Assembly: GCA_041660025.1 (NCBI GenBank)
Contig: JBAZXD010000001.1
Span: 40,059-104,058 of the forward strand
DNA length: 64,000 nucleotides
From: Minisyncoccota bacterium
Lineage (GTDB): Bacteria; Patescibacteriota; Minisyncoccia; Phycocordibacterales; Phycocordibacteraceae
Direction: 5' to 3'
Shown piece by piece: positions 1 to 14,262 of this stretch; the first letter of the stretch is position 1, and each line of letters starts with the position of its first letter. The notes under the pieces were generated by a model that searched no databases, was not told where the DNA came from, and saw only the letters and a program-made list of their open reading frames with translations. A program made the translations under genes and the position numbers.

Positions 1-491
1 CAGAGCTCGGAGACGCGCAATCCGGTGGAGAACAATAATTCAAGAATAGCGCTATCGCGCAGGTAATTCCGCGCCTTGTCAGGATCTTCTTCCTTCTCGA
101 ATGCTTCGCGCGGGGAACGCATAAGGCGCTCGAGCTCGGCGGAGGTGATGAGGTCGAGCTGGCGCTCGGGGAGCTTCGCGAGCTCTATCTTCTCGGGGGA
201 AATGGCGTCGATATCGCGCTTGCGGAGGAACTTCAGAAACGCGCGGAGCGCGATCATATAGTAATTCTGGGTGCGGCGTTTCATCGAGTCGGCTTTCGTG
301 CCCGGCTGACGGTTAAGCCAGAGGCGGAACTCGCGGACATTCTGTTCAGTGATGTCGCGCACATCCTTTATCTTCATCTGGCTGAAGTAGCGGGTGAGGT
401 AGCGGTCGTAATTCTCGATAGTCTTCACCGCGCGCCCGCGCTCAATCTCGATGTATTCCAGAAATTGCCTCTTCGCCGCCTCCGCATTCAT
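1..491 (-). CDS. tyrosine site-specific recombinase, XerC/XerD-like (N-terminal part; 3' end runs off the window)
   Basis: Reverse-complement translation from ATG at 491..489 reads MNAEAAKRQFLEYIEIERGRAVKTIENYDRYLTRYF...LRDSAILELLFSTGLRVSEL: an SAM-like N-terminal core-binding domain followed by the LLxSTGLRxSEL motif typical of XerC/XerD and phage integrases. It is absent from the ORF track because no stop lies in the window. Confidence 0.6.
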   Translation of the reverse strand, partial: MNAEAAKRQFLEYIEIERGRAVKTIENYDRYLTRYFSQMKIKDVRDITEQNVREFRLWLNRQPGTKADSMKRRTQNYYMIALRAFLKFLRKRDIDAISPEKIELAKLPERQLDLITSAELERLMRSPREAFEKEEDPDKARNYLRDSAILELLFSTGLRVSEL

Positions 492-583
492 TACCTAGCA
501 GTATAGCGCGGCAAATATTGTGCGCAGTACTGATTCTGCGACACTTGCGCGTTTTCGCAAGGCGTGGTAGGGTAGGGGGACTC

Positions 584-926: not shown

Positions 927-1442
927 ATGGCAGTTATCAAACATCCAGCCCAGCGCGTCGGGGTATTCATCGACACGCAGAATCTCTATCACAGCGCCAA
1001 GCATCTCTATAAAGCGCGCGTGAACTTCGCAAAGGTCCTCGAAGAGGCCGTCGGTGGTCGCGTACTCGTGCGCGCCATCGCCTATGTCATCTCGACCGAG
1101 GCGGGTGACGAGACCAACTTCTTCGAAGCGCTCACGAAGATAGGCATCGAGACCAAGGTAAAGGGCCTCCAGGTCTTCGCCGACGGCGCGAAGAAAGCCG
1201 ACTGGGACGTCGGGCTCGCAATCGACGCGGTCAAACTCGCGCCCAAGCTCGACACAGTCATCATCGCTTCCGGCGATGGCGATTTCGTTCCGCTTATCCA
1301 GTATCTCGATATGAACGAGGGATGCCAGGTAGAGGTCATCTCCTTCGGCAAGTCTTCGTCGGGCAAATTGAAGGAAGCAGCGCACGCCTTCACCGATATG
1401 TGCGACGATCCACGCAAATTTACTATCACCTCGCGGGCATAA
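927..1442 (+). CDS. NYN/LabA-like domain protein (PIN-like putative RNase)
   Basis: VFIDTQNLYHS...DWDVGLAIDA...IIASGDGDFVPL motifs of the NYN (PF01936) fold. The last 18 codons lie inside direct repeat copy 1. Confidence 0.7.
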   Translation: MAVIKHPAQRVGVFIDTQNLYHSAKHLYKARVNFAKVLEEAVGGRVLVRAIAYVISTEAGDETNFFEALTKIGIETKVKGLQVFADGAKKADWDVGLAIDAVKLAPKLDTVIIASGDGDFVPLIQYLDMNEGCQVEVISFGKSSSGKLKEAAHAFTDMCDDPRKFTITSRA

Positions 1443-1443
1443 C
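1389..1443. repeat. direct repeat copy 1 (55 bp), which is the in-use 3' end of the NYN gene
   Basis: ttcaccgatatgtgcgacgatccacgcaaatttactatcacctcgcgggcataac. It is 52/55 identical to 2896..2950; all three differences are synonymous third-position changes, AT-richer in this copy. Confidence 0.8.
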
Positions 1444-1498
1444 TAGTTCGGCAAAAGAAAGCCCCGCGCATTGCGCGAGGCTTAATCGAAATCTGCAC

Positions 1499-1936
1499 CT
1501 AAATGACGTAAGCGAATCCATTAGAAGGTGCTTTCCAGAGACAATCGAGATCATCTGATGCCCCATCTAGCGATCCATTACGACCATAGCGGGTTATCTG
1601 CAGGAAAGGACTATCGCCCAAGACAACAATCGTAAAAAGACCCATAGCTTCAATATCCTCGTTCGAAAACTTGTCCCGAATGAGGCAAGCGACCTCCGCA
1701 GCCGATACGGACTCACCCCTTGTAAAGTTGTGACGAGGTATTACTCCGTCAAGTATGGCTACTTCCACCGTCCTGCCGAAAGTCGGCCTGAAACTATCGC
1801 TACGGAGGACATCTTTGGCGTGGAAATCAATTTCGAAGCTCTTCTTTTCCAATCGCTCAATCCATATAGGACCGGTTGTTCCGTCAGAGGTAACCCTGAG
1901 AAGGATTACGCCGTCTTGTTTCCGCCAGTTGTTCAT
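1499..1936 (-). CDS. hypothetical protein (145 aa), islet cargo
   Basis: Complete ORF with intermediate GC. No family recognised by eye (MNNWRKQDGVILLRVTSDGTTGPIWIERLE...GLFTIVVLGDSPFLQITRYGRNGSLDGASDDLDCLW). Divergent from the TrmB-like gene across an extremely AT-rich 165-bp spacer. Confidence 0.4.
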   Translation of the reverse strand: MNNWRKQDGVILLRVTSDGTTGPIWIERLEKKSFEIDFHAKDVLRSDSFRPTFGRTVEVAILDGVIPRHNFTRGESVSAAEVACLIRDKFSNEDIEAMGLFTIVVLGDSPFLQITRYGRNGSLDGASDDLDCLWKAPSNGFAYVI

Positions 1937-2101
1937 TTAGTACCTCCGTGAATTAATGGGTAAAAGACCAGCCACCAGCCAAAATATAGCATATGACTAC
2001 ACTAAAGTCAATATAAAGTACCGCGTTTGCAATATATTTATGAAAGATGTATATTTAAAACATACACATTTAAATTAAAGGTGGTTCCCGCCACTATTTT
2101 T

Positions 2102-2884
2102 ATGGTCAATTCTGAAAACAAAGAAGAATCCGCTCTTTACACTTCTCTTAAGGAATTGGGTTTAAGCGACCCGGAAGCCAATTTATATGCTGTTTCTCTT
2201 AAGCTTGGGCCAAGCTCAATTTCTGAACTGGCAAAAAATGTGAATGTCTCTCGTCCAAATGTTTATAAAATTATAGAGGGCCTTCAGATGTATGGACTCG
2301 CATCTTTTTATGGAAAAGAGAAATACGCTCGCAACTTCATGGTTGAATCCCCGACGATTGTTTTTGAGAAACTTCAAGCAAAGAAGGAATCGTTAAATAG
2401 GCTTGGACATCAGATTGTTACTGAATTGCCTGAATTGCTTGCACTTTATCAACAGGGCGGGAAAGACACGAAAATAAAAATTCTTAAAGGGCGAGAACAA
2501 TATGTAAGAGTGTTCCTTCAAACAGCTGATGAAACAGCAAATGGAGGAGTGATTGAATTTTTTGGGTCAGCGGAGGATTTTATTGGTCTTACTGGTTGGG
2601 ACACGGAGAAAATCTGGATTAAAAAGCGTATTAAGAAAAATATTTCAGTGAAATCACTCGTTCCGCCAGGATCTGTCGCGATGCTCAAAAAGAATCAAGA
2701 GGACGAATTAAGAGAGGTAAGGATTTATAGTGGAAACTTTTCTTTTAGTACCGCTTTCGAGCTCTTTGGAAACAAAATGATCGTTTGGCAGCCCGTGGCA
2801 CCGCTAGCTGTCCTCATTGAGGATCAATATATAGTTTCTATGTTTCGCAGTATCTTTTATACCTTGTGGGGAAAGTCAAAATGA
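2102..2884 (+). CDS. TrmB-like winged-helix transcriptional regulator with uncharacterised C-terminal domain
   Basis: N-terminus SLKELGLSDPEANLYAVSLKLGPSSISELAKNVNVSRPNVYKIIEGLQMYGLAS fits the TrmB-type HTH. The ORF track starts at a TTG at 2027; the ATG at 2102 (MVNSENKEE...) is more plausible. Low GC (AT-rich codons throughout). Confidence 0.5.
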   Translation: MVNSENKEESALYTSLKELGLSDPEANLYAVSLKLGPSSISELAKNVNVSRPNVYKIIEGLQMYGLASFYGKEKYARNFMVESPTIVFEKLQAKKESLNRLGHQIVTELPELLALYQQGGKDTKIKILKGREQYVRVFLQTADETANGGVIEFFGSAEDFIGLTGWDTEKIWIKKRIKKNISVKSLVPPGSVAMLKKNQEDELREVRIYSGNFSFSTAFELFGNKMIVWQPVAPLAVLIEDQYIVSMFRSIFYTLWGKSK

Positions 2885-2895
2885 TTATATGTTAC

Positions 2896-2950
2896 TTCAC
2901 CGATATGTGCGACGACCCGCGCAAATTTACCATCACCTCGCGGGCATAAC
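2896..2950. repeat. direct repeat copy 2 (55 bp), the displaced GC-rich copy of the NYN gene 3' end
   Basis: ttcaccgatatgtgcgacgacccgcgcaaatttaccatcacctcgcgggcataac. In frame it would encode the same FTDMCDDPRKFTITSRA* peptide as copy 1. Confidence 0.8.
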
Positions 2951-2986
2951 GCCGAGCATAGTGCGTTCGGTGCGGTACTATAGAGA

Positions 2987-4099
2987 GTGATGGACGAGCC
3001 GAAGAAATATATCCGCACATTCGCGGGAGATATGGAGACCCTGAAAAAGGGAGGCACGCCTGATCTCGCACCGTTGCGCACTGTTCCAGCTGTACCATCC
3101 GTACCGTCCGCACAGCCGCCTGTCGCGACGCTCCCCGCACAACCGCTCCCGACGCCGCCTCCGCCTGAACCACAGAAGATCGCGGAGCCGTTCCCGAGCG
3201 TCGCGCCGAAGGAGCCCGCGGCGGCGCCGCTCAAGACCTATTCGGGCGACTTTTTCGACCGGATGAAGGCGACGAAGGCTACGACCGCCACCGTGCTCGC
3301 CGCCGAACAGGATTCGGCGCCGATTATTTCGCAACCGCCCCCAGAAAAATTTTCACGCAGCAATATTCTCTACAGCATCGCGGGCGGCATACTGCTTATT
3401 GCCGGCATAGCCGGAGCGTATGTCGCGTACACGCGCTACCTCGCCGTATCCTCTCCGATATTGCCGGTCCTCACGGTCTCGGCGCCGATATTCGTCGACG
3501 AACGCGAGCAGATTTCTGGCACGGGTACTACGCTCTTTCAGGCAATCGGACAGTTAACGACGCGTCCGCTTGCGGCCGGCGCCGTCCGACTCCTCTCTCT
3601 CGACGCTACGGCCACTACCAGCGTATTCTCAGCGCTCCAGGTGCCGGCACCCAGCGTCCTACTCCGCAACGTGGTCACCGCCGGGAGTATGGCGGGCGTC
3701 GTGTCCACGGGAGGTGGAACACAAAGCCCGTTCTTCATCCTTTCGGTCGCTTCCTTCGGGGATACCTTCGCCGGTATGTTGCAGTGGGAGCCGCTTATAT
3801 TGCGCGACCTCGCCAGACTTTTCCCGCCATATCCGGCTCCGGCGATAGCGACCACGACGAGTGCGACCACGACGCTGAAGAGCACGGGGAAAACGGCTTC
3901 CACGACGCCGCCCGCGCCCGCCGCTCGCTTCGTCGATGCGATCGTCGCTAATCACGATGTCCGCGTCTATCGCGACACGCTCGGCCGGGACATCCTGCTC
4001 TACGGCTATTGGAATCAGACGACGCTCGTTATCGCGCGCGACGTCGCCGCGTTCACCGAGATCATAGGAAGACTTGCAACTTCCCGTGCACAACTCTAG
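2987..4099 (+). CDS. hypothetical single-pass membrane protein with proline-rich N-terminal region
   Basis: 370-aa ORF. P/A-rich low-complexity stretch (PAVPSVPSAQPPVATLPAQPLPTPPPPEPQ), one TM helix (ILYSIAGGILLIAGIAGAYVAYTRYL), then a ~220-aa extracytoplasmic domain. No family recognised. Confidence 0.5.
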   Translation: MMDEPKKYIRTFAGDMETLKKGGTPDLAPLRTVPAVPSVPSAQPPVATLPAQPLPTPPPPEPQKIAEPFPSVAPKEPAAAPLKTYSGDFFDRMKATKATTATVLAAEQDSAPIISQPPPEKFSRSNILYSIAGGILLIAGIAGAYVAYTRYLAVSSPILPVLTVSAPIFVDEREQISGTGTTLFQAIGQLTTRPLAAGAVRLLSLDATATTSVFSALQVPAPSVLLRNVVTAGSMAGVVSTGGGTQSPFFILSVASFGDTFAGMLQWEPLILRDLARLFPPYPAPAIATTTSATTTLKSTGKTASTTPPAPAARFVDAIVANHDVRVYRDTLGRDILLYGYWNQTTLVIARDVAAFTEIIGRLATSRAQL

Positions 4100-4119
4100 G
4101 TGTCTGCTATTATCCCTGC

Positions 4120-4467
4120 ATGAAGACCGAACACTTCAGGAAGAAACTCTCCGCGGAGAAGGCGCGACTGGAATCAGAAATGGGAACGGTCGGTCGCCAG
4201 AATCCTGCGGTGCCCGGTGACTGGGAATCGGTCCCGTCGGAGACGGGCGTCGAATCCGACCTCGCCGACCAGGCCGACATCGTGATGAGCCGCGAGGGCA
4301 ACAGTGCTATCCTCGCCGATCTTGAAGCACGGTACGACACGGTCATCTCAGCGCTCGCGCGGCTCGAGAACGGCACGTACGGGAAGTGCGAAGTCTGCGG
4401 CAAGAAGATAGAAGAAGAGCGTCTCGAGGCCAACCCCACCGCGACGACCTGCGTCGAACATTTGTAA
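4120..4467 (+). CDS. DksA/TraR-family zinc-finger protein
   Basis: [20 protein letters not shown]...[30 protein letters not shown]: coiled-coil plus C-terminal CxxC...C zinc finger of the DksA/TraR type. ATG at 4120 lies inside the longer track ORF 4009..4467. Confidence 0.65.
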
Positions 4468-4472
4468 TACTC

Positions 4473-6053
4473 ATGCCCGCGGCGCGCTCGGAATCCGCAA
4501 CAGTCCGCCCGTCCGCTCCCTTGAAGAGAGCCGCGCCGAAAAGCGGCTACGCCAAGACGCTTGCCGCACAACCGGTCGGCTCCGGCGCGGAGATCATTAC
4601 CGTCGAGGCCGACCTCACGCGCGGTTTGCATAATTTCTCGGTCGTCGGGCTCGCCGACAAGGCGGTCGATGAGGCGCGCGATCGGGTTAGCGCCGCGATA
4701 CGCCACTCCGGTCACAAGCCACCCAAACAGCAGAACAAACGTATCGTCCTCTCGCTCTCGCCAGCGGACCTGAAGAAAGAAGGCTCGCACTACGACCTCG
4801 CGCTCGCGCTTGCTTACCTCATCGCCGCCGGCGACCTCGCGCCGCTTGAAAGCGAGATGCTGTTTGCCGGCGAGCTCGCGCTCGACGGGACTCTGCGGAG
4901 CGTGCGTGGCATACTCCCGCAAGTGCTCGCCGCCAAGCGCCGCAAGGTCAAGACGATGTTCGTCCCGCCAGGAAATGCGCGCGAGGCGCTTCTCGCGGAA
5001 GGCGTGGCGATCTATGCGCCAAAGTCGCTTGCGGAACTTTTACAGCATTTGAAAGGGGAGAAGCCGCTTCCACGCCTTCTGCGCGACCGCCGCGCGCCGG
5101 TGCCGCCGCCCGCGCTCGACCTCCAGGATGTGAAAGGGCAAGAGAGTGCGAAGCGCGCACTCGAGATCGCCGCCGCCGGTCGCCACAACATCGTCTTTTA
5201 CGGCCCGCCGGGGACAGGGAAGACGATGCTCGCTCGCGCGCTCTCCGGCATCCTCCCGCCGCTCTCCGATGACGAGATGCTCGAGGTAACAGCGATACAC
5301 TCGACCGCCGGACTGCTCAAAGACGGCGAGGCAGTCTACTGGCCGCCCCTGCGCGCGCCGCACCACTCGATATCCCACGTCGCCATCGTCGGCGGGGGCA
5401 CGTTCCCGAAGGCGGGCGAGGTAACGCTCGCGCACAAGGGTGTCCTCTTCCTCGACGAATTCCCCGAGTTCGACTCCCGCACGCTCGAAGCGCTCCGTCA
5501 GCCGCTCGAAGACCGCGTCGTAACCGTCTCGCGCGCACGGGCGAGCATTACCTTCCCGGCCGACTGTATGATCGTCGCGGCGATGAATCCCGCGGACACA
5601 CTCTCCGACGACGCGCGGGTCGCCTTTCGCGCCGCGGCGAAGCAGGCGCGCCGCATCAGCCGGCCCATCGTCGACCGCCTCGACCTCTGGATCGAAGTGC
5701 CGCTCGTTCCGCACGCGACACTTGCGAAACTGAGTACCGGAGAATCGTCGGAGAGCGTCCGCGAACGCGTCGTCGGCGCGCGAGTACGGGCGGCGAAGCG
5801 AAGCGGTAAGTCAGGCGCGACGAACGCCGCGCTCTCTGGTCGTGAACTCGACGAAAAAAGTGGATTTACCCCGGAAGCGAAGGAGACGCTTACCCAGTCT
5901 GCCGCGCGCCTCAATCTCTCGCCGCGGAGCTACCACCGCACGATGCGCGTCGCGCGCACCATCGCCGACCTCGCCGGCGTCGAAGCGGTCACTCCGGCTT
6001 TCGTGCACGAGGCTCTACAATATCGCCCCCGCGGTCTCTTCGGATTTGAATGA
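4473..6053 (+). CDS. comM: YifB/ComM-family Mg-chelatase-like AAA+ ATPase
   Basis: Lon-like N-terminal domain, Walker [28 protein letters not shown], and C-terminal Mg-chelatase domain. ATG at 4473 (MPAARSE...). Confidence 0.85.
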
Positions 6054-6060
6054 TCGATGC

Positions 6061-6099
6061 AAAAATCCCGCGATGCCGGAGGCATCGCGGGATTTTTAT
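6061..6099. terminator. bidirectional intrinsic terminator between convergent comM-like and M23 peptidase genes
   Basis: aaaaatcccgcgatgcc-ggag-ggcatcgcgggattttt: a 13-bp perfect stem with an A-tract on one side and a T-tract on the other. Confidence 0.6.
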
Positions 6100-6186
6100 A
6101 AAGAGCTTACTACGACGAGCGAGGGAACAAACGAATGCATTTTGTTTGTTCCTCGAGCGAGGAAGGAGAAAGCGTGCAAGTAACGC

Positions 6187-7299
6187 TTATTGGGGAGCAC
6201 AGACAGCGCCGACAGAGCAATTACGGAAAGGATTGGCCGCGCCGCGGACTTCGAAGTGGAGATGCGCTCCGGTTGAGAGACCGGTCGAGCCGACATAGCC
6301 GATAATCTGGCCGGACGCGACCGACTGTCCCGGCGAGACCGCGACGCTCCGCATGTGCGAATAGAGGGTCTGTGAACCATTACCGTGCGTGATAACGACG
6401 TAGTTGCCGTAGCCGCCATTCCAGCCGCCGCCGCCGCGCGCGACGATGACGGTCCCGTCGGCGGCGGCGCGGATCGTCGTGCCGCGCGAGGCGCCGAAGT
6501 CGACGCCGTTCCAGCCGTGAAGTCTCTGCGTGAGGACGGCGCCCGGGATGGGATTGCTGTAGTAGCCCGTCTGTGCGGAGCCACCACCACCCAAGAAAGG
6601 TTCGCGGATGGTGGATGACGGACGTGCGCTCGACGCGGGCGCGATGATCTCGCCGCCCGGGATGATGATGGTTGAACCGACCTTAAGAGGTTCCGCCGGA
6701 TCGAGACCGTTGAACTGAGCTATATCACCCGCATCGGCACTGTATTTCTTGGCGAGCGACTTGAGCGTATCGCCCTTCGCGATCACGCGCTCGACGCCCG
6801 AGACGGGCAGGATGACGAGCGTATCGCCCGGATGCACATCCCGCGTGCTCTTCAGATTGTTCGCCCACAGGATGGTATTTACCGAGACACCGAACATGTT
6901 CGAGATATCCGAGAGGGTATCGCCCGCGCGCACTACGTAGACCGAGATGCGGTCGGGTTGTACTGCACCCTCGACGTCCGCCAGCGTGCCGGAGGGGCCG
7001 CTATAGGAGACGAGCGCCGCACCGCCAGAGGTAGCGAGCGCTATGGGCGCCCCGGGGTTCGGGTTCCTGTTTATTGACGCCATCAATACCGGCGTCGAAG
7101 CGCTCGGGACGAGCGCATTGGTCGTTGCCGCCCCCGCATTCGTAGAAAAAGGCCAGAACGCACTTGCGTGGTTCGGCAAGATTGCGGCGGCACCTACGAC
7201 GGCCGCGAATCCGAGTATGAAGAATTGTTTGTTGAATGTAATGGGAAAACGAGGGTGTCGGCGGGTCTTTCTAATACAAAAATGGCTTACATAAGCCAT
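6187..7299 (-). CDS. secreted LysM-domain M23-family peptidoglycan endopeptidase
   Basis: Signal-like N-terminus. LysM motifs (YVVRAGDTLSDISNMFGVSVNTILWAN; IAKGDTLKSLAKKYSADAGDIAQFNGL). M23 catalytic motifs HxxxD...GYVGSTGLSTGAHLHFEVR. The exact start is uncertain. Confidence 0.8.
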   Translation of the reverse strand: MAYVSHFCIRKTRRHPRFPITFNKQFFILGFAAVVGAAAILPNHASAFWPFSTNAGAATTNALVPSASTPVLMASINRNPNPGAPIALATSGGAALVSYSGPSGTLADVEGAVQPDRISVYVVRAGDTLSDISNMFGVSVNTILWANNLKSTRDVHPGDTLVILPVSGVERVIAKGDTLKSLAKKYSADAGDIAQFNGLDPAEPLKVGSTIIIPGGEIIAPASSARPSSTIREPFLGGGGSAQTGYYSNPIPGAVLTQRLHGWNGVDFGASRGTTIRAAADGTVIVARGGGGWNGGYGNYVVITHGNGSQTLYSHMRSVAVSPGQSVASGQIIGYVGSTGLSTGAHLHFEVRGAANPFRNCSVGAVCAPQ

Positions 7300-7358
7300 T
7301 TCTTGCGTACTTCCATATCAGCTATACCCCGAGTATAGCCGAGGGGGGCGCTTCGTCA

Positions 7359-9341
7359 ATGAAGCCTCTAAACGCCTGTGGAGAACGGTTTTTAGGGTAT
7401 ATTTGGAAAGTGAAATACCTCGACGGATTAAATGAGGCGCAAAAACGGGCTGTCCTTGCAAAGGACGGCCCGATCTCGGTCCTCGCGGGCGCCGGAAGCG
7501 GGAAAACGCGGGTGCTCACCACGCGGATATACCATCTGATACGCGAAGGCGTCGCGGCGGAGCAGATCCTCGCCGTTACCTTCACCAACAAGGCCGCCCG
7601 TGAGATGCGCGAACGGGTGCGGGGACAGCTCGGCGCGGACCCTTCGATGGACTCAGGACAGGCGGGGCCGCTCCCGTTCATCGCCACCTTCCACGGTCTT
7701 GGCCGCGAGCTCCTCGAGAGCTACGGGAAGGCGATTGGCATCTCGCGCTACTTCAGCGTCTACGACCGCGACGATTCTGAAAAGGCGATCGGCGCGGCGC
7801 TTAAGGCGCTCGATGTCGGCGCGAAGGAGCTTTCGCCGCGCGCGGTCCTCGGCCGCATCTCGCGCGAGAAGGGTGCCGGGATGCGCGCGAATGAATTTTA
7901 TGAGAAGCACGGCCGCGGGAGCTTCGGCGCGCGCGTCGTCGCGGAGGCGTGGCTTCGCTACGAGAAAACACTTGCGGCAGAGAAATCGCTCGACTTCGAC
8001 GACCTCATCGCTCTGCCCGTGCGGCTCCTCGAGGAGCACGCCGACATCCGCGCACTCGCGCAGGACCGCTGGCGCTACATCCACATCGACGAATATCAGG
8101 ACACCAATGCGCTCCAGGGACGGCTCGCGAATATGCTCGCCTCGAAACATCGGAACCTCTTCGTCGTCGGCGACATCGACCAGACTATCTACACGTGGCG
8201 CGGCGCAACGATTGAGAACCTGCTTGAATTCGACAAAACGTATCCGGATGCGCAAACGATTATTCTCGAACAGAACTATCGTTCGACGAAAAATCTCGTC
8301 GACGCCGCGAACGCGGTTATCGAGAAGAACAAGAATCGTAAGGAGAAGTATTCGACGACGAAAAAGGCAACCGGCGAGCCGATCCTTGTGCATATGGCGC
8401 GAAGCGCGGACGACGAGGCGCGCTGGATCGCGCTCCGGATACGGCAATTAATGAGCGCGGGCCAGAAACCGGAGGGGATCGCTATACTCTTCCGCACCAA
8501 CTTTCAATCCCGCGCGCTCGAGGAGGGGCTCCTGCGCGCGGGCGTGCCGTACAAGCTGCTCGGCACGCGCTTCTTCGCGCGCAAGGAGGTGAAGGATGCG
8601 CTCGCCTGGATGCGTCTTGCGATGGACTCCTCGCGCGAGGTCGACAAGCTGCGCGCGGCGGCTGCGCCGCCGCGCGGGCTCGGTAAGGTGACGCTCGCGA
8701 AGCTCGCGGCGGGCCAGCGTTCATTGCTTCGCGCCGGCGACCTTACGAAGGTCGAACAATTCGAACAGATCGTCGCAGAGCTCGCGGGCGCCTCGCTCGT
8801 CCTCTCGCCCTCCGCATTCGTAAGACTCGTCATCGAGAAGAGTGGTATACGCCGCGCGCTCTACGACGAGGGGAGCGCGGAGGACCGCGAGCGCTTCGAG
8901 AACGTCGAAGAGCTCGCCTCGGTCGCCGCACGGCACGATGCGATGCCGGGCAGAGAGGGAATCGCCGCATTTCTCGCCGAATCCGCCTTGGCGAGCGATC
9001 AGGACGAGATGGATCAGGGCGAAAAGAAAGGCGTCACGCTTATGACGGTTCATTCGGCGAAGGGACTCGAGTTCGATACGGTATTCGTGAGCGGTATGGA
9101 AGAAGGACTCTTCCCGCATCAGGGGATGGGGAATGAGGGAGATCGTGATGAAGAGGAGGAGCGACGGCTCTTCTACGTCGCAATGACGCGCGCGAAAGAG
9201 CGCCTCATCCTCACGCTCGCGCGCGTTCGCAAGATTTACGGCAGTGACTTCGCGTCGGAGCCCTCGTCATTTCTCGCGGATATCGACGGAGCGCTGATGC
9301 ACTATGACGAGACCGAAGGAGAAGAGGTTATCGAGGCCTAA
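7359..9341 (+). CDS. UvrD/PcrA/Rep-family ATP-dependent DNA helicase
   Basis: Walker A AGAGSGKTRVLT, helicase motifs TFHGLG, DEYQDTN, VGDIDQTIY, C-terminal VTLMTVHSAKGLEFDTVFV. GAGGGGGG RBS 10 nt before the ATG at 7359. Confidence 0.85.
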   Translation: MKPLNACGERFLGYIWKVKYLDGLNEAQKRAVLAKDGPISVLAGAGSGKTRVLTTRIYHLIREGVAAEQILAVTFTNKAAREMRERVRGQLGADPSMDSGQAGPLPFIATFHGLGRELLESYGKAIGISRYFSVYDRDDSEKAIGAALKALDVGAKELSPRAVLGRISREKGAGMRANEFYEKHGRGSFGARVVAEAWLRYEKTLAAEKSLDFDDLIALPVRLLEEHADIRALAQDRWRYIHIDEYQDTNALQGRLANMLASKHRNLFVVGDIDQTIYTWRGATIENLLEFDKTYPDAQTIILEQNYRSTKNLVDAANAVIEKNKNRKEKYSTTKKATGEPILVHMARSADDEARWIALRIRQLMSAGQKPEGIAILFRTNFQSRALEEGLLRAGVPYKLLGTRFFARKEVKDALAWMRLAMDSSREVDKLRAAAAPPRGLGKVTLAKLAAGQRSLLRAGDLTKVEQFEQIVAELAGASLVLSPSAFVRLVIEKSGIRRALYDEGSAEDRERFENVEELASVAARHDAMPGREGIAAFLAESALASDQDEMDQGEKKGVTLMTVHSAKGLEFDTVFVSGMEEGLFPHQGMGNEGDRDEEEERRLFYVAMTRAKERLILTLARVRKIYGSDFASEPSSFLADIDGALMHYDETEGEEVIEA

Positions 9342-9676
9342 GTAGTCTCTAGTTCCGGTTCCGTGACACCGAAGTGGCTTTTGAACGACCGTTCGATGAC
9401 CTCCCGTTCTTTGGGTTTGAGGTCATGGCGACCTTCGTAGTGCGTGTCTAAGAATTTCATAGCCATATCGATGTGGTGGCTTTTCATCCCTAATTTCAAA
9501 TCCTCCTTTTTTTCCACGTGAGCGATAGCGGCTTTCAGAGCTGCATCGACGCGCGCCCTGCCGTGTTCTTGTAGACCGGCTGCATTTTGCAGGTGAGTAA
9601 ATAGTTCGCGCGGTTGTCCTCGTTCAAGATGCTCGTGCGTAAGGTTGCCGTAGTTCATATAACCAGTATTGTACAC
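9338..9676 (-). CDS. hypothetical protein (112 aa)
   Basis: Complete ORF, His/Glu-rich, no family recognised. GC is visibly lower than the neighbouring genes. Its stop overlaps the helicase stop by 4 nt (convergent). Confidence 0.4.
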   Translation of the reverse strand: MYNTGYMNYGNLTHEHLERGQPRELFTHLQNAAGLQEHGRARVDAALKAAIAHVEKKEDLKLGMKSHHIDMAMKFLDTHYEGRHDLKPKEREVIERSFKSHFGVTEPELETT

Positions 9677-9678
9677 CT

Positions 9679-10428
9679 ATGCGCGCTAAGAAAAGTCTCG
9701 GGCAGAATTTCCTGATGCACGCGCGCATCGCGGAGCGTATTGCGCTCGCCGCTCATCTCGCGCCGAGCACGGTCGTGTTCGAGATCGGCCCCGGGACCGG
9801 CATGCTCACGCGGGAACTCCTGAAACTGGCAGGGAAAGTAGTTGCGCTTGAAGCGGACTATGAACTCATCGAGAAATTACGAATTGATTTTTCGGATGAG
9901 ATCGCGAATGGCCGGCTCGAACTCATCCACGGTGACATACGCACATTCAACATCTCTTCGCTCCCGAAGGGATATGCGCTCGTCGCGAATATTCCGTACT
10001 ATCTGACGGGCGAGATTTTCCGGATGTTCCTTGCGGCGCCGAACCAGCCGAGCTCGATGACGCTTTTGGTACAGAAAGAGGTTGCGGCGCGTATCGCGCG
10101 TGCGAAGAAAGAGAGCATTCTTTCGCTCTCGGTAAAGGCGTACGGCACCCCGGCATATGAGTTCACGGTCCCGCGCGGGGCGTTTTGCCCCGCGCCCAAG
10201 GTCGATTCCGCCGTGCTCGCCGTCCGCGACATTTCGCGGAAGGATTTTCCCTCACCAGAGGAAGAAGAGCGATTTTTCGCGCTTCTGCACGCGGGGTTCG
10301 CACACAAACGTAAATTCGTGCGAAAAAATCTGGCCGATGCCGGACTGCCTGCGGGAACTATTCCTGAAAAAGCTCGCGCCGAAGACCTGCCGCTCTCGGT
10401 ATGGCTCGCCCTAAGCAGGGTCGAATGA
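9679..10428 (+). CDS. rsmA: 16S rRNA (adenine1518/1519-N6)-dimethyltransferase
   Basis: LGQNFL, SAM motif VFEIGPGTGMLT, VANIPYYLTGEIF. Confidence 0.85.
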   Translation: MRAKKSLGQNFLMHARIAERIALAAHLAPSTVVFEIGPGTGMLTRELLKLAGKVVALEADYELIEKLRIDFSDEIANGRLELIHGDIRTFNISSLPKGYALVANIPYYLTGEIFRMFLAAPNQPSSMTLLVQKEVAARIARAKKESILSLSVKAYGTPAYEFTVPRGAFCPAPKVDSAVLAVRDISRKDFPSPEEEERFFALLHAGFAHKRKFVRKNLADAGLPAGTIPEKARAEDLPLSVWLALSRVE

Positions 10429-10433
10429 TACGA

Positions 10434-11408
10434 CTATACCGGAGAAGAGCCGACCACCGGTGTGATCAGACCCTCTGAGTAGATGTAGTACGGTCCGATC
10501 CAGCATGCGCCGGGACCGGGAGTGTATTCTCCAAGAAGCCAGCTCGTCGCCGGTATATTGTACGAGAGAAATGCCTGGGATCCCGACATATAAGAGACAA
10601 GGGTTACAAAAGTAGGAGGAAGCGGTGAGAGCATAATGTTCCAGACACCGCCATTGCAGGGGAGAGGGAACAGAAGCGCACCGCCGAAGGGAACGCCGGT
10701 CCCGGCGCGTGCACGACCGGGCATAAAGACGGTATCAAACGCGCGTTCTACCATCGCCAAAGTTCTACCGATAAGAGAGGTATCCTGCACTGCTTGGTTG
10801 GGTGTGTCTTGAACCATTTTCAGAAAAGTGGCGTGCAGGTCGGTCGTGGTAGCAATCACTTTCATAACCTGTTCCTTCACTGCGGCGATCTCAGTGGCAG
10901 AGGCTCCCTGCTTTGTCGCGACGCTGTCGAGAGCGGCTAAGAATTTGTCGACATTCTTCAGATTCGGATTTTGAGAAGCCATTGCCGGAGCGGGAGTCTC
11001 GGCGGGTACAGTCTGCGTATCGACACGTGGAGCGCTTGTTTGCGACAAGGTAGAAATCGTATTGAGTTTCGCTCTCGTATACAGTCCTACATAGCCATTA
11101 CCCTGGGATAGGCCGGCGGGTGTCAAGACTTCGCTTGCGTACTTCGCTTGGAACCGTACAACGGCTCTTTTCGTGAGCGCTCCAAAGTAGCTCGTTTCAT
11201 TTCCCGGAGAACCTGAACCGGTGCTCGCAATGCGCGTATCCGGGTCGCGGTTCAGGATACGCTGAAGCGCGATAACCTGCGGGCCCGAAGAACCGAGCGA
11301 GAGATTATTCATAAACGCATTCGGGGCGCCCGCCTGTGCGTTCGCGAATGTTCCGTACGGGAACACGATACTAAAAGCCGCGATGAGAGAGAGAAACGAA
11401 GCTCGCAT
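10434..11408 (-). CDS. secreted protein with putative peptidoglycan-binding (PG_binding_1-like) domain
   Basis: Signal peptide (MRASFLSLIAAFSIVFPYGTFANAQA). GPQVIALQRILNRDP...YFGALTKRAVVRFQAKY resembles PF01471. The C-terminal half is unassigned. Confidence 0.55.
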   Translation of the reverse strand: MRASFLSLIAAFSIVFPYGTFANAQAGAPNAFMNNLSLGSSGPQVIALQRILNRDPDTRIASTGSGSPGNETSYFGALTKRAVVRFQAKYASEVLTPAGLSQGNGYVGLYTRAKLNTISTLSQTSAPRVDTQTVPAETPAPAMASQNPNLKNVDKFLAALDSVATKQGASATEIAAVKEQVMKVIATTTDLHATFLKMVQDTPNQAVQDTSLIGRTLAMVERAFDTVFMPGRARAGTGVPFGGALLFPLPCNGGVWNIMLSPLPPTFVTLVSYMSGSQAFLSYNIPATSWLLGEYTPGPGACWIGPYYIYSEGLITPVVGSSPV

Positions 11409-11476
11409 AAATAAAAGGATAGCACGCGATAAGAACCCGCGAGTTTATGCACTTAGGTCTCTAGGGTAATCGGTTC

Positions 11477-12535
11477 GTGCTGGGTATACTTCATATGCAT
11501 ACTATGGGCAGAATTCTCGAAAACTGGCGGGTTCTTATCGCGGCTCTCCTTGCAATGGGGCTTATCGTTGGTTCGTTTATGCTCGCGCGCGGCATCGAAT
11601 CGCCCAGGAGCGCGCAAGCGTCGGCCGAGACCGCGCTCCTCCAAGCGATCGCATCGAAGGATACGGACGGCGACGGACTTCCCGACTGGGAAGAAGCGCT
11701 CTACGGGACATCGTCGAGCACCGCCGATACATTCAAGCTCGGTATGACCGACGGCGAGGCGGTCGCGCGCGGTCTTATCGTGCCGAAGGCGATTTCCGAC
11801 ATCGCAGTGAAGACTTCCGCTCCGGCAGATGCCGACGCGGACGGTCTTCCCCCGCCTGCCGCCGAGGGGACGCTCACTGCCGCATTCGCACAACACTTCT
11901 TCACTCTCTACCTCGCGGCGAAAGAGGCGAACGGCGGCGCGAATCTCTCTGAAAGCGGCATGGCGAGCATTGCGAACGAGGCCCTGAGCTCTCTCTCCTC
12001 CGCCATTACCGCCGCGCCCGACTTCAAAGCCGCAAAGGACCTAAAGGTCTCCGGTTCGGGCCCTGAAGCCCTTAAAGCGTTCGCGGCCGCGGCCGAAGCG
12101 GTGCTGCGGAAGAATACGACCAGCGCGACGAAGAATGAGGTTTTGTACTTAGAGGACGCGGTCCAAAAGAATGACGCTAGGGCGTTGTCGTACATCGCCG
12201 GAATCGCGAAAGGGTATCGGGAGTCTGCCGTCGGCCTTTCTATGCTCGCCGTCCCGCAAGAGCTTGTCGCGGACGATCTCGCGCTCATTAATGCGATGGT
12301 CCGCATAAGCGAGATCATTACCGACTTCGCGCGCGTGAATGACGACCCGCTCGCGGCGATGCTCGCCCTCGGGCAATACCCGGCGGCCGTGCAGTCTCTC
12401 GGAGAGGCTTTTATACGCGTCGGCGCGCAATATAGAGACGCGGGTATCTCCCTCTCTGCGGGTACGCCCGGGGCGGCATTCGTGAATCTCATTAGCGACC
12501 TGGCACAAGAACAGGCTGCCGCAAAAAAGCCATGA
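11477..12535 (+). CDS. hypothetical N-terminally membrane-anchored protein (first gene of the envelope operon)
   Basis: TM anchor LIAALLAMGLIVGSFMLA. DTDGDGLPDWEE calcium-binding-like motif. Ala-rich extracytoplasmic domain. Stop overlaps the next start (ATGA at 12532). An alternative start is at 11504. Confidence 0.5.
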   Translation: MLGILHMHTMGRILENWRVLIAALLAMGLIVGSFMLARGIESPRSAQASAETALLQAIASKDTDGDGLPDWEEALYGTSSSTADTFKLGMTDGEAVARGLIVPKAISDIAVKTSAPADADADGLPPPAAEGTLTAAFAQHFFTLYLAAKEANGGANLSESGMASIANEALSSLSSAITAAPDFKAAKDLKVSGSGPEALKAFAAAAEAVLRKNTTSATKNEVLYLEDAVQKNDARALSYIAGIAKGYRESAVGLSMLAVPQELVADDLALINAMVRISEIITDFARVNDDPLAAMLALGQYPAAVQSLGEAFIRVGAQYRDAGISLSAGTPGAAFVNLISDLAQEQAAAKKP

Positions 12536-14262
12536 AATCGCGCTTCATTTCTCCACTGCTCTCGGCACTTCTCGTCGTATCGCTTCTTGCGCCATCGCTC
12601 TTCTTCGTAGCACCACAAGAAGTGCATGCCCAGTCTATAGGCGTTCCAACGGACGACTGGGTGGTTCGGATCAAGGAAACGCTCAACCTGGTATCGACCT
12701 ACACGAACACTGCCGCGAATGTCGCGATGCAGATCAACGCGTACGTGCTCCAGCCGCTCGCCTTCGCGCTCTCGGGGGATCTGCTGAAGATGATCACCGC
12801 CGGCGTCATCTCCTTCGTCATCGGCAAGGCGAACGGCACCGGCATCCCGCAGTTCGTAGTGGACGTGCAGAAATCGCTCCAGACGGTCGGTGACGCACGC
12901 GCTCTTACGTTCCTTGATCAGTTCGGGCGGAACTCCAATTCGCCCTTCGCCTCTTCAATAGCATCGTCCTTGCGCAACGATTACCTCTCCAAGACGAGTC
13001 TCGCCGGATTCTGGGCCGCCAATATGAATACGCTCGCGCGCTCGACGCCCTCGTATCGGCCGGGCTACCTCGCCGGGAACTGGTCGCAGGGCGGCGTGCG
13101 GGCGTGGTTCGCGCTCACGACACAGGTGCAGAACAACCCGTACACGTTCTATCAGAATTCGCAGGAACGGCTCGGCACTATGATTGGCCCCGGCATCGGC
13201 GGCGCCACCGGCGCGCGTGTCGCGGAGCTCAATTGGGGGCAGGGTTTCACCTCGTGGTGCGGAGCGACCGACACGGGGGGTAGTGACGGAACGGAGATGG
13301 AGTCTGAGGCAGGCGTGAATCCGGGAGACCCGTGTACTGACAAAGACGGGAACCCGGGCTCTATCAAGACGCCCGGCTCGGTCATCGTGGCGAGCCTTAA
13401 TAAGGCGCTCGGTAGTCAGACGGATTCGATACTTCGGATGGGGAATGTCGGCCCCGAGATCAATAACATCCTGAGGAACATCGGGACCGTTATGCAGACG
13501 GTGAACTTCGCGACGCAGATACTCGGCGGCTCGGGCTCGGGCGGCCTCTTCGGCGTGAATGCCACCTCTGGCACGAATCCGACTTCTCGGCTTATGCAGT
13601 ACCAGAACACGCCCGGGTACCTAGGCGTCACTCAGTCTTCGGTGTTACAGAACGCGGCGACGCTCCCGGTAGTGAGTTCTGATATGTCGGGCCGTCTCAC
13701 TCAATACGAATCGTCGTGGAGCACTATCAGCTCGGCGGCGAACGCCGCGTCGACGACCGTCGCGAGCCTCGCGAATTTCTGTATTGCAGAGCAGAAAGTC
13801 GCGCCGTCGGTATTCAACAATGATGAGGCAGGCTTAGCGGCTTTCTTAAGCGCGAGCACCGCCCAGGCGAATACCGCGCGTTCCGTGCTCACGACGACGA
13901 TCGCACCAGTGCTCGCTCAGGCTTCAGCTGCCGCCACAACAATTGCTACGGCGCGCGCGATGGTGCAAAGAGTCCAAAGCGGTCAGAATTCGACCTCTGG
14001 AACGGCGAGTGCCGCATATCTCGCCGATCTGCAGACGCTGCAAACTATGCCGCCCTCGGACGCGGACATCTCGAATGCTCTGCAAGATGCACAAATTGCC
14101 GGCGTGGCGACCGCTATTCCGGCAGGTTCCCTCACGGTCTCGGGCGGAACGATCGTCGGCAGGATGAGCCTGCTCAGCACGAATGCCGAGGCGCTCAAGG
14201 CTTCGGTCTGTACTCCCGTCGCGTCTGTGAGAGGAAACAACAACAGCGACAATGGCGATTAA
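12532..14262 (+). CDS. hypothetical secreted protein (576 aa)
   Basis: Cleavable-looking signal peptide (MKSRFISPLLSALLVVSLLAPSLFFVAPQEVHAQ). Ser/Thr/Gly/Asn-rich, no family recognised. Overlaps the next gene by 11 nt. Confidence 0.5.
   Translation: MKSRFISPLLSALLVVSLLAPSLFFVAPQEVHAQSIGVPTDDWVVRIKETLNLVSTYTNTAANVAMQINAYVLQPLAFALSGDLLKMITAGVISFVIGKANGTGIPQFVVDVQKSLQTVGDARALTFLDQFGRNSNSPFASSIASSLRNDYLSKTSLAGFWAANMNTLARSTPSYRPGYLAGNWSQGGVRAWFALTTQVQNNPYTFYQNSQERLGTMIGPGIGGATGARVAELNWGQGFTSWCGATDTGGSDGTEMESEAGVNPGDPCTDKDGNPGSIKTPGSVIVASLNKALGSQTDSILRMGNVGPEINNILRNIGTVMQTVNFATQILGGSGSGGLFGVNATSGTNPTSRLMQYQNTPGYLGVTQSSVLQNAATLPVVSSDMSGRLTQYESSWSTISSAANAASTTVASLANFCIAEQKVAPSVFNNDEAGLAAFLSASTAQANTARSVLTTTIAPVLAQASAAATTIATARAMVQRVQSGQNSTSGTASAAYLADLQTLQTMPPSDADISNALQDAQIAGVATAIPAGSLTVSGGTIVGRMSLLSTNAEALKASVCTPVASVRGNNNSDNGD

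Follow-up and report, generated by a model that had tools for sequence, protein, structure and literature searches.

How does a pair of AT-rich genes come to stand directly behind a conserved gene in a streamlined genome, with a second copy of that gene's end on their far side? The question is raised by a locus near the start of a 64,000-nucleotide (64-kb) stretch of contig JBAZXD010000001.1 (assembly GCA_041660025.1, from a Minisyncoccota bacterium), which was analyzed at its full length and is called the window here. A gene encoding an NYN-domain protein (LabA/DUF88; positions 927..1442, plus strand; PF01936, E = 9e-35) is followed by an islet of 1451 bp (1444..2894) that carries two genes, one for a small protein of 145 residues (p145) and one for a TrmB-like winged helix-turn-helix (wHTH) regulator. 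None of the related loci has the islet, and no other segment of the window is as low in GC. We read it as a clean, comparatively dated horizontal insertion into a Kaiserbacteria-like genome, in which the footprint of the attachment site has been kept and the 3' end of the NYN gene is the identified site of integration.

The site is empty in relatives

Related loci were identified with the NYN protein, 80 in species-representative genomes and 80 in metagenomes, to give a set of 160. Almost all of them belong to Kaiserbacteria-like Parcubacteria, with NYN proteins that share 69-96% identity with the one studied here and nucleotide identities that do not exceed 87%. Wherever the contig extends that far, the order of genes is the same throughout this set: an Xer recombinase gene on the minus strand, then S15, NYN, p370, and DksA, with ComM following DksA in many of the loci. 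The p370 gene (2987..4099, plus strand) encodes a conserved hypothetical membrane protein and is the native downstream neighbor of NYN. In every related locus close enough to judge, only 17-150 nt separate the NYN stop codon from the p370 start, and a TrmB or p145 homologue lies between the two genes in none of the 160. A second NYN 3' end was likewise found in none of these loci, the best second match reaching 24-32 of 54 positions, which is the level expected by chance. In the window, the right copy of the duplicated gene end runs directly into the NYN-p370 intergenic sequence and the p370 promoter that are native to the relatives. With all 160 related loci empty at this site, the islet is, by comparison with these genomes, a lineage-specific insertion.

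An initial annotation of the DNA had proposed that a two-gene islet was inserted at the NYN 3' end, and the empty-site comparison bears this out: in the relatives, NYN stands directly before the counterpart of the gene at 2987 and has a single 3' end. Both flanking genes have kept an intact reading. The end of NYN is restored, and the p370 promoter is untouched, with its conserved extended -10 element (TGCGGTACTATAG; 2971..2983, plus strand), which precedes the p370 start in many relatives, still in place after the insertion. The idea that some relatives have insertions of their own at the NYN 3' end was also considered and ruled out. The larger gaps between NYN and p370, judged from tblastn starts, correspond to longer low-complexity N-termini of p370.

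The composition of the islet also differs from that of its surroundings. GC content is 0.393 in the TrmB gene, 0.327 in the spacer between the two islet genes, and 0.484 in p145, against a window mean of 0.587 and values of 0.57-0.62 in the flanking genes. At third codon positions, the two islet genes have a GC of 0.36 and 0.49, versus 0.71-0.81 in the host neighbors. The islet had been described as strikingly AT-rich, which is apt for the lowest-GC stretch of the window but too strong for its p145 half, which is only moderately AT-shifted. The spacer, once called almost pure A/T, measures 67% A+T over its 165 bp. The nearest relatives of the cargo proteins are found in other Parcubacteria, and this, together with the foreign composition, supports insertion. 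There are only two supported open reading frames (ORFs) in the islet, and neither is a recombinase, as had already been noted.

A skeptic could hold that nothing was inserted at all. The two genes might be ancestral and lost in the relatives, or the assembly might have fused the chromosome with an unrelated AT-rich genome into a chimera. The source contig does come from a metagenome assembly. However, an independently assembled contig (L001; Logan, SRR18595301, k = 31) corresponds to window positions 1382..4033 with 100% identity and covers both junctions. Exact identity between the two copies of the repeat extends over no more than 21 nt, so that a de Bruijn assembly with k = 31 cannot thread a false path between them, which excludes an assembly chimera. 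That the Logan contig ends at 1382, a few bases before the repeat begins, might speak for a chimera; against this stand both junctions spanned by 31-mers in a second assembly, the lack of the genes in 160 of 160 relatives, the foreign composition, and the duplicated gene end. A locus without any insertion is essentially refuted by these data, and we find it scarcely credible.

The left end of the Logan contig deserves a comment of its own. Position 1382 is exactly where the leftmost 31-mer that still holds the variant site 1412 begins. A co-occurring variant that has T at 1409 but lacks A at 1412 (GAT CCG, as in several relatives) could account for such an end, and a drop in coverage is equally able to explain it.

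Known types of small mobile elements were tried as models for the islet. Integron, IS200/IS605, and transposon models were ruled out: a hairpin pair, attC-like or subterminal, is lacking, as are terminal inverted repeats and a transposase. There are no tRNA, transfer-messenger RNA, or Rfam elements at the insertion site. Exact-protein look-ups of NYN, p370, and a 267-residue call of the TrmB protein returned no record.

A duplicated gene end with synonymous differences

The trace left by the insertion is the repeat itself. Its left copy (attL-like; 1388..1443, plus strand) now serves as the 3' end of NYN, and its right copy (attR-like; 2895..2950, plus strand) is the displaced original NYN 3' end, now non-coding. 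In a repeat search, the two copies were identical at 53 of 56 nt (95%) and formed the sole long repeat of the first 6 kb; by self-BLAST, this pair was also the only self-match of the islet within the window. The three synonymous mismatches reported in the initial annotation were correct, and the repeat proved to be one base longer, toward the left, than the 55 bp given there. The similarity starts abruptly within NYN and ends one base past the NYN stop codon, and the last 54 nt of the gene fall inside the left copy.

Left and right copies differ at 1409 (T/C), 1412 (A/G), and 1424 (T/C). Read in the NYN frame (927 + 3n), the affected codons are GAT/GAC, CCA/CCG, and ACT/ACC, all changed in the third position and all synonymous, and the peptide FTDMCDDPRKFTITSRA, followed by the stop codon, is encoded by both copies. 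For random substitutions in the repeat, the chance that three of three would be synonymous is P = 0.011, or 0.037 if only transitions are allowed. That all three differences are synonymous suggests that both copies evolved under coding constraint. The differences are also ordered along the repeat. They sit, in both copies, to the right of a 21-nt stretch that is the same in each (CTTCACCGATATGTGCGACGA; 1388..1408, plus strand) and is the longest exact match between them, and they sort as a block. A crossover within this core predicts exactly such a pattern, and the core is the putative crossover region.

Codon usage tells the two copies apart. In the neighboring host genes, GAC outnumbers GAT (53 vs 20), CCG outnumbers CCA (55 vs 11), and ACC outnumbers ACT (31 vs 9). 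The left copy, with T/A/T at the three sites, has the host-rare codons ending in A or T, and the right copy, with C/G/C, has the host-preferred ones. C/G/C is also the majority state among the NYN ends of the relatives. Both the codon counts and this majority state agree with the earlier view that the copy in use is the AT-richer one and the displaced copy is host-like. The repeat was also considered as a template repeat (TR) and variable repeat (VR) pair of a diversity-generating retroelement (DGR); this was ruled out, as differences of the types T/C, A/G, and T/C are not adenine-specific in either copy.

The same pattern bears on the idea that the 56 nt were duplicated in place, by fill-in of a staggered break or as a transposition-type target duplication, and that the differences arose later. 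The copies are very alike, and no att-type architecture or integrase is visible, as would be expected in that case. However, a target duplication of 56 nt fits no known mechanism of transposition, and terminal inverted repeats and a transposase are lacking. Had the differences arisen after insertion, when the displaced copy was free of constraint, all of them would be expected to be synonymous in about 5% of cases (P ~0.05, our estimate from the substitution figures). Moreover, if the host had C/G/C, all three changes must have hit the constrained copy, and it would be by chance alone that the repeat ends precisely at the stop codon. Duplication in place is therefore quite improbable in our judgment.

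Probable origin by site-specific integration

We consider it likely that the islet arose by site-specific integration into the NYN 3' end, with a recombinase that was then lost or that acted in trans. In such an event, a circular DNA of ~1.5 kb, or a larger element that was later trimmed, would have met a Kaiserbacteria-like (Parcubacteria/Paceibacterota) chromosome. The incoming DNA would have carried its own NYN 3' end, from the crossover core through the stop codon, and a Campbell-type single reciprocal crossover would have taken place in the last 56 nt of NYN, within the 21-nt core. The enzyme would most likely have been a site-specific tyrosine recombinase, either supplied in trans or since lost. 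The resulting order would be the NYN body, the 21-nt core, the tail of the element (in use), the cargo, the core again, the tail of the host gene (displaced), and the native p370 promoter; the junction of the original circle would have read …ATGATTATATGTTA-core-AT tail-TAGTTCGG…. Only the segment of NYN from core to stop was carried, which fits an attP-type site and not a captured gene fragment. The islet would now be decayed or non-autonomous, a remnant similar to a cis-mobilizable element (CIME), and its cargo would be a self-contained unit in which the TrmB-type regulator would bind TGTATAT-N5-ACATACA over its own promoter.

Several results count against site-specific integration. The islet encodes no integrase, and no second tyrosine recombinase was found in the window with a hidden Markov model (HMM) built from 68 Xer orthologues, serine and DDE enzymes not having been searched window-wide. 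No inverted-repeat architecture for recombinase binding is evident in the 21-nt core. A related element, intact or decayed, was not found at the NYN 3' ends of the 160 loci or elsewhere, and the nearest TrmB homologue, 70% identical, lies in an ordinary chromosomal context with no flanking repeats. The 54-nt repeat pattern, made degenerate at the three variant sites, is absent from metagenome and viral contig collections, the source contig itself not being in the metagenome collection. No viral origin emerged either: NYN, TrmB, the p145 family profile, and the repeat gave no confirmed match in IMG/VR, and PHROGs yielded nothing significant. The two copies are three differences apart, compared with 3-13 differences to almost any sequenced relative. 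Copies so alike mean that the copy borne by the element must stem from a very close relative of the host, despite the compositionally foreign cargo. Finally, there is no evidence of excision of the islet or of a circular form.

Some of these points leave room for homologous or homology-facilitated illegitimate recombination (HFIR), with no site-specific recombinase involved. In the HFIR version, DNA from a near relative would have entered with the islet already behind NYN; the NYN gene would have served as the homology anchor, and an illegitimate join would have been made 56 nt before the host stop codon. In a RecA version, a circular fragment with a 56-nt NYN segment would have been taken in by a RecA-mediated single crossover. 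Copies that differ at 3 of 56 positions, closer than nearly all relatives, are what a near-relative donor would be expected to give, and the lack of an integrase in the islet, of a second tyrosine recombinase in the window, and of any family of related elements is in keeping with this. At the right junction, just one base (C at 1388/2895) comes ahead of the shared stretch, and a join by microhomology could have left it so. On the other hand, this route requires an earlier, unexplained event that placed an AT-rich islet behind the NYN gene of the donor, and none of the 160 relatives has anything between NYN and p370. A segment of 56 nt, of which 21 nt are perfectly identical, is a poor substrate for RecA. 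The element side of the right junction has no further NYN sequence, which is like an attP site rather than a random fragment, and on inspection the codon usage of NYN is unshifted upstream of 1388. We regard recombination of this kind as unlikely, while giving it real weight.

The recombinase question

Site-specific integration calls for a recombinase, and the initial annotation had pointed to the XerC/XerD-like gene at the edge of the window, of which the 5' part is present (1..491, minus strand; Pfam Phage_int_SAM_1/4 and the start of Phage_integrase). This gene holds the same syntenic place upstream of S15-NYN in nearly all of the 160 islet-free loci, so its nearness is uninformative about the islet. 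Judged by this synteny, Xer is a conserved host gene and not a part of the element, and the idea that it is the element's own recombinase was abandoned.

A conserved Xer could nevertheless have served an incoming element in trans. Integrative mobile elements exploiting Xer (IMEXs) enter the chromosome in this way, and the single Xer of the host might have used, in place of dif, a pseudo-site within the NYN 3' end. The islet is without a recombinase, and Xer is the sole tyrosine recombinase seen. Between the Xer start and the S15 promoter, at window positions 514-526, lies a motif, AATATTGTGCG(C/A)AC, that resembles the XerC arm of dif in proteobacteria (GGTGCGCATAAT). In its GCGAC variant (ATATTGTGCGAC), the motif agrees with the NYN core GATATGTGCGAC save for one deleted T, a 12-nt resemblance with one indel that was found by inspection and noticed post hoc. 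Against Xer catalysis, the proximity of the gene carries no information, the motif has no second arm and occurs in both orientations, and the conserved peptide TDMCDD fixes the sequence of the NYN core. The insertion site lies within coding sequence and has no structure resembling a bipartite dif, and known IMEXs enter dif, not genes. Integration by the host Xer appears improbable.

A more daring proposal builds on the same elements. The islet could be a living, integrase-less mini-element of the Candidate Phyla Radiation (CPR), moved by the host Xer, 0.9 kb away, at the TDMCDD-coding core of NYN. It would be a gene-repairing, IMEX-like parasite of chromosome-dimer resolution that shuttles cassettes of a regulator and a variable protein among Kaiserbacteria. 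We think this very improbable.

The Xer-adjacent motif can also be viewed apart from the islet. It is conserved in ~45 related loci, running one way in about half of the relatives and the opposite way in the rest. A dif-like nature of the motif was not upheld, on account of the missing second arm and the two orientations.

The cargo protein p145

The first cargo gene, p145 (1499..1936, minus strand), has GGAGGT 5 nt ahead of its ATG. Its transcript would end at an intrinsic-terminator hairpin (1459..1483, minus strand), with an 11-bp G+C-rich stem and a T-run, that parts p145 from the converging NYN gene. The fold energy of this hairpin is -22.2 kcal/mol (z = -3.0), and 0 of 200 shuffled sequences were as stable. 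The ORF of p145 is intact, and the gene has kept its promoter, a strong Shine-Dalgarno sequence, and the hairpin of the terminator; any function of its product is conjectural.

At first reading, p145 had been called unrecognizable. This holds in that it has no match in Pfam, PHROG, PADLOC, or NCBIfam, and fails in that 418 homologues of ~211 residues (p211) occur across Parcubacteria, with ~47% identity over 99% of p145 (E ~1e-25 to 1e-28). Relative to these homologues, p145 is shorter by ~35 residues at the N-terminus and by two internal segments, and its C-terminal tail is missing. Its own structural model has a pLDDT of 78 and no significant fold match.

The family can be placed through one of its members. 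In a metagenome contig (L085; JGI 3300049489, Ga0499958_0000001), a complete DGR spans positions 8001-10522, and its target gene encodes P0024, a homologue of p145. The VR of P0024 lies at 8492-8618 and the TR at 8955-9081 (127 nt), with 18 of 18 mismatches at TR adenines. Downstream of the TR are an ORF for a four-helix-bundle protein (9100-9585, minus strand) and an RVT_1 reverse transcriptase (RT; 9428-10522). The variable positions of the family fall on those codons of this TR that contain adenine, and the model of P0024 matches C-type-lectin/formylglycine-generating enzyme folds, including TvpA and Mtd. In this one genome, P0024 is demonstrably the variable protein of a DGR by its gene arrangement and repeats, and on this basis the ~211-residue Parcubacteria family is assigned to the DGR variable proteins. 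For p145 itself, neither a template repeat nor a DGR reverse transcriptase was found in the window. By homology, then, p145 is an orphan, a shortened and divergent relative of DGR variable proteins with a C-type-lectin fold.

Other features of the family were observed along the way. A TR and an RT lie within 8 kb in only one of three distinct p211 contexts. The p211 genes have a GC content of 0.58-0.60, while their host loci have 0.38, 0.51, and 0.46 (L085, L086, and L089, respectively) and p145 has 0.48. Such a steady composition suggests either frequent transfer or a constraint on composition tied to DGR targeting.

It had been speculated that the cargo pair is a toxin or defense module. The data do not support this: p145 has no PADLOC or toxin match and is a homologue of a DGR family, and the regulator has only weak CasR/Csa3 wHTH matches (E >= 4e-4).

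The regulator and its divergent promoter

The second cargo gene (2102..2884, plus strand) encodes a regulator of 260 residues, and the earlier call of a TrmB-like wHTH protein was upheld by a match to PF01978 over residues 16-67 (E = 1.3e-10; 41.4 bits vs a cut-off of 25.6). The NCBIfam models TrmB and TrmBL1 gave 16-21 bits against cut-offs of 600-650 and matched the N-terminus only, and there was no sequence match in the PDB. According to these profiles, the protein is a TrmB-like wHTH protein with an uncharacterized C-terminal domain that is not recognizably the sugar-binding domain of TrmB. The 260-residue family is very common in CPR genomes, with the best homologue 70% identical. The start of the gene differs by gene caller (260, 267, or 285 residues), the conserved ATG being the one at 2102.

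The two cargo genes diverge from the spacer (1937..2101), which had been taken for a shared promoter and operator region. The sequence agrees with this view. On the minus strand, a predicted p145 promoter reads TTGACT-17-TATATT (2011..1983), with TG in front, and on the plus strand a predicted TrmB promoter reads TTGCAA-17-TATATT (2027..2055). A palindromic operator candidate, TGTATAT-TTAAA-ACATACA (2048..2066), overlaps the -10 element of the TrmB promoter and occurs once in the window, against 0.00 occurrences expected. The same palindrome lies just upstream of TrmB homologues in two other genomes (L002 and L094), and a variant of it in a third (L096); in general form, the palindrome reads TGTATAY-N5-RYATACA. 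The ~130 bp ahead of the regulator (~1975-2101) align with sequence upstream of the TrmB homologues in these three genomes. The block conserved in all four contains TTGCAA/TATATT for the regulator, TTGAC(A/T)…TATGCTATA facing the opposite way, and the palindrome.

What lies on the other side of this block differs from genome to genome. The divergent partner is a 191-residue protein in L002, a 118-residue protein in L096, and a Peripla_BP_6 solute-binding protein in L094, and the 191-residue neighbor of the closest TrmB homologue (L002) is unrelated to p145. From these alignments, the regulator is seen to travel together with a bidirectional promoter/operator whose partner gene changes between genomes, and it probably regulates itself and controls the divergent p145 promoter.

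A conserved TrmB-p145 cargo pair was considered and ruled out, as TrmB partners differ and p211 genes follow RNR or LigA with no TrmB. Att-like repeats were not found around TrmB or p211 genes elsewhere, except for the VR/TR pair of L085, which is the DGR itself. In L094 (GCA_052033735.1), four TrmB-like paralogues alternate with Peripla_BP_6 genes and ABC ATPases over positions 1517-12783, an array which suggests that TrmB-like proteins of the CPR are mainly local regulators of transporter genes. A small G+C-rich hairpin of the islet (GGTGGTTCCCGCCACT), at 2080-2095, separates the start codon of TrmB from its promoter and has no conserved counterpart in the homologous upstream regions.

Neighboring host genes

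Two observations concern the genes on either side of the islet. The promoter element of p370, TGCGnTACTATAG, lies only ~8 nt ahead of the conserved ATG at 2990. This spacing suggests that the p370 mRNA is leaderless or nearly so and that the likely true start is 2990 and not the GTG at 2987. Farther upstream, at window positions 545-573, a promoter-like element of S15 (CTTGCG…TGGTAGGGT) is conserved across the related loci.

Meaning of the islet and comparison with known systems

Mobile elements of CPR/Patescibacteria are poorly catalogued, and elements of the CIME type are, to our knowledge, barely described in CPR bacteria. The islet extends known mechanisms to this little-studied lineage and overturns nothing. 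Two by-products of the analysis may be more useful than the islet itself. One is an uncharacterized family of ~211-residue Parcubacteria proteins linked to DGRs, and the other is a TrmB-type regulator with a portable, conserved bidirectional promoter/operator and differing partners.

The islet and its cargo can be set beside several known systems, each of which it resembles in part. Like archaeal TrmB/TrmBL proteins, the regulator has an N-terminal PF01978 wHTH domain, is divergent from its probable target, and has a palindromic operator candidate; unlike them, it has a C-terminal domain that is not recognizably sugar-binding. The DGR variable proteins include Mtd, TvpA, and those of the CPR-restricted DGR clade 2 (PMC8144416). 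p145 is homologous over its full length to the P0024 family of such proteins, but it is shortened, has no TR or RT within 64 kb, and gave no fold match with its own model.

With regard to integration, the islet shares with IMEXs such as CTX-phi, VGJ-phi, and the gonococcal island the lack of a recombinase of its own, a host Xer-type enzyme being the only candidate in view. IMEXs use dif, however, while the site of the islet is within a coding sequence. A further parallel is offered by prophages such as phage 21 and e14, which integrate in the 3' end of icd in E. coli and supply a substitute end. In the islet, too, the copy brought by the element is in use, and the displaced end differs only synonymously. 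These prophages encode an integrase and an excisionase and measure tens of kb, whereas phage genes are absent from the islet and viral collections gave no match to it.

The islet also behaves like integrative elements that have lost their means of movement. Integrative elements have been described with direct repeats of 8-60 bp at the target gene's 3' end, and CIMEs are those that keep attL and attR and have lost the integrase (PMC5704250). The islet has att-like repeats at its ends, and the attB is unoccupied in relatives; the islet has no integrase of its own, which sets it apart from an autonomous integrative element. No integrative and conjugative element (ICE) or integrative and mobilizable element (IME) with an integrase for the same att site was found at the NYN 3' ends of the 160 loci or in metagenome or viral collections. 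The islet differs from described CIMEs in having no known parent ICE or IME with a matching integrase and in its size of only 1.45 kb. In its sequence features, it nevertheless corresponds to a CIME as defined descriptively: attL and attR are kept, as repeats within the range of 8-60 bp; the 3' end of a conserved gene is left intact; and what lies between, with no genes for integration or transfer, is cargo only.

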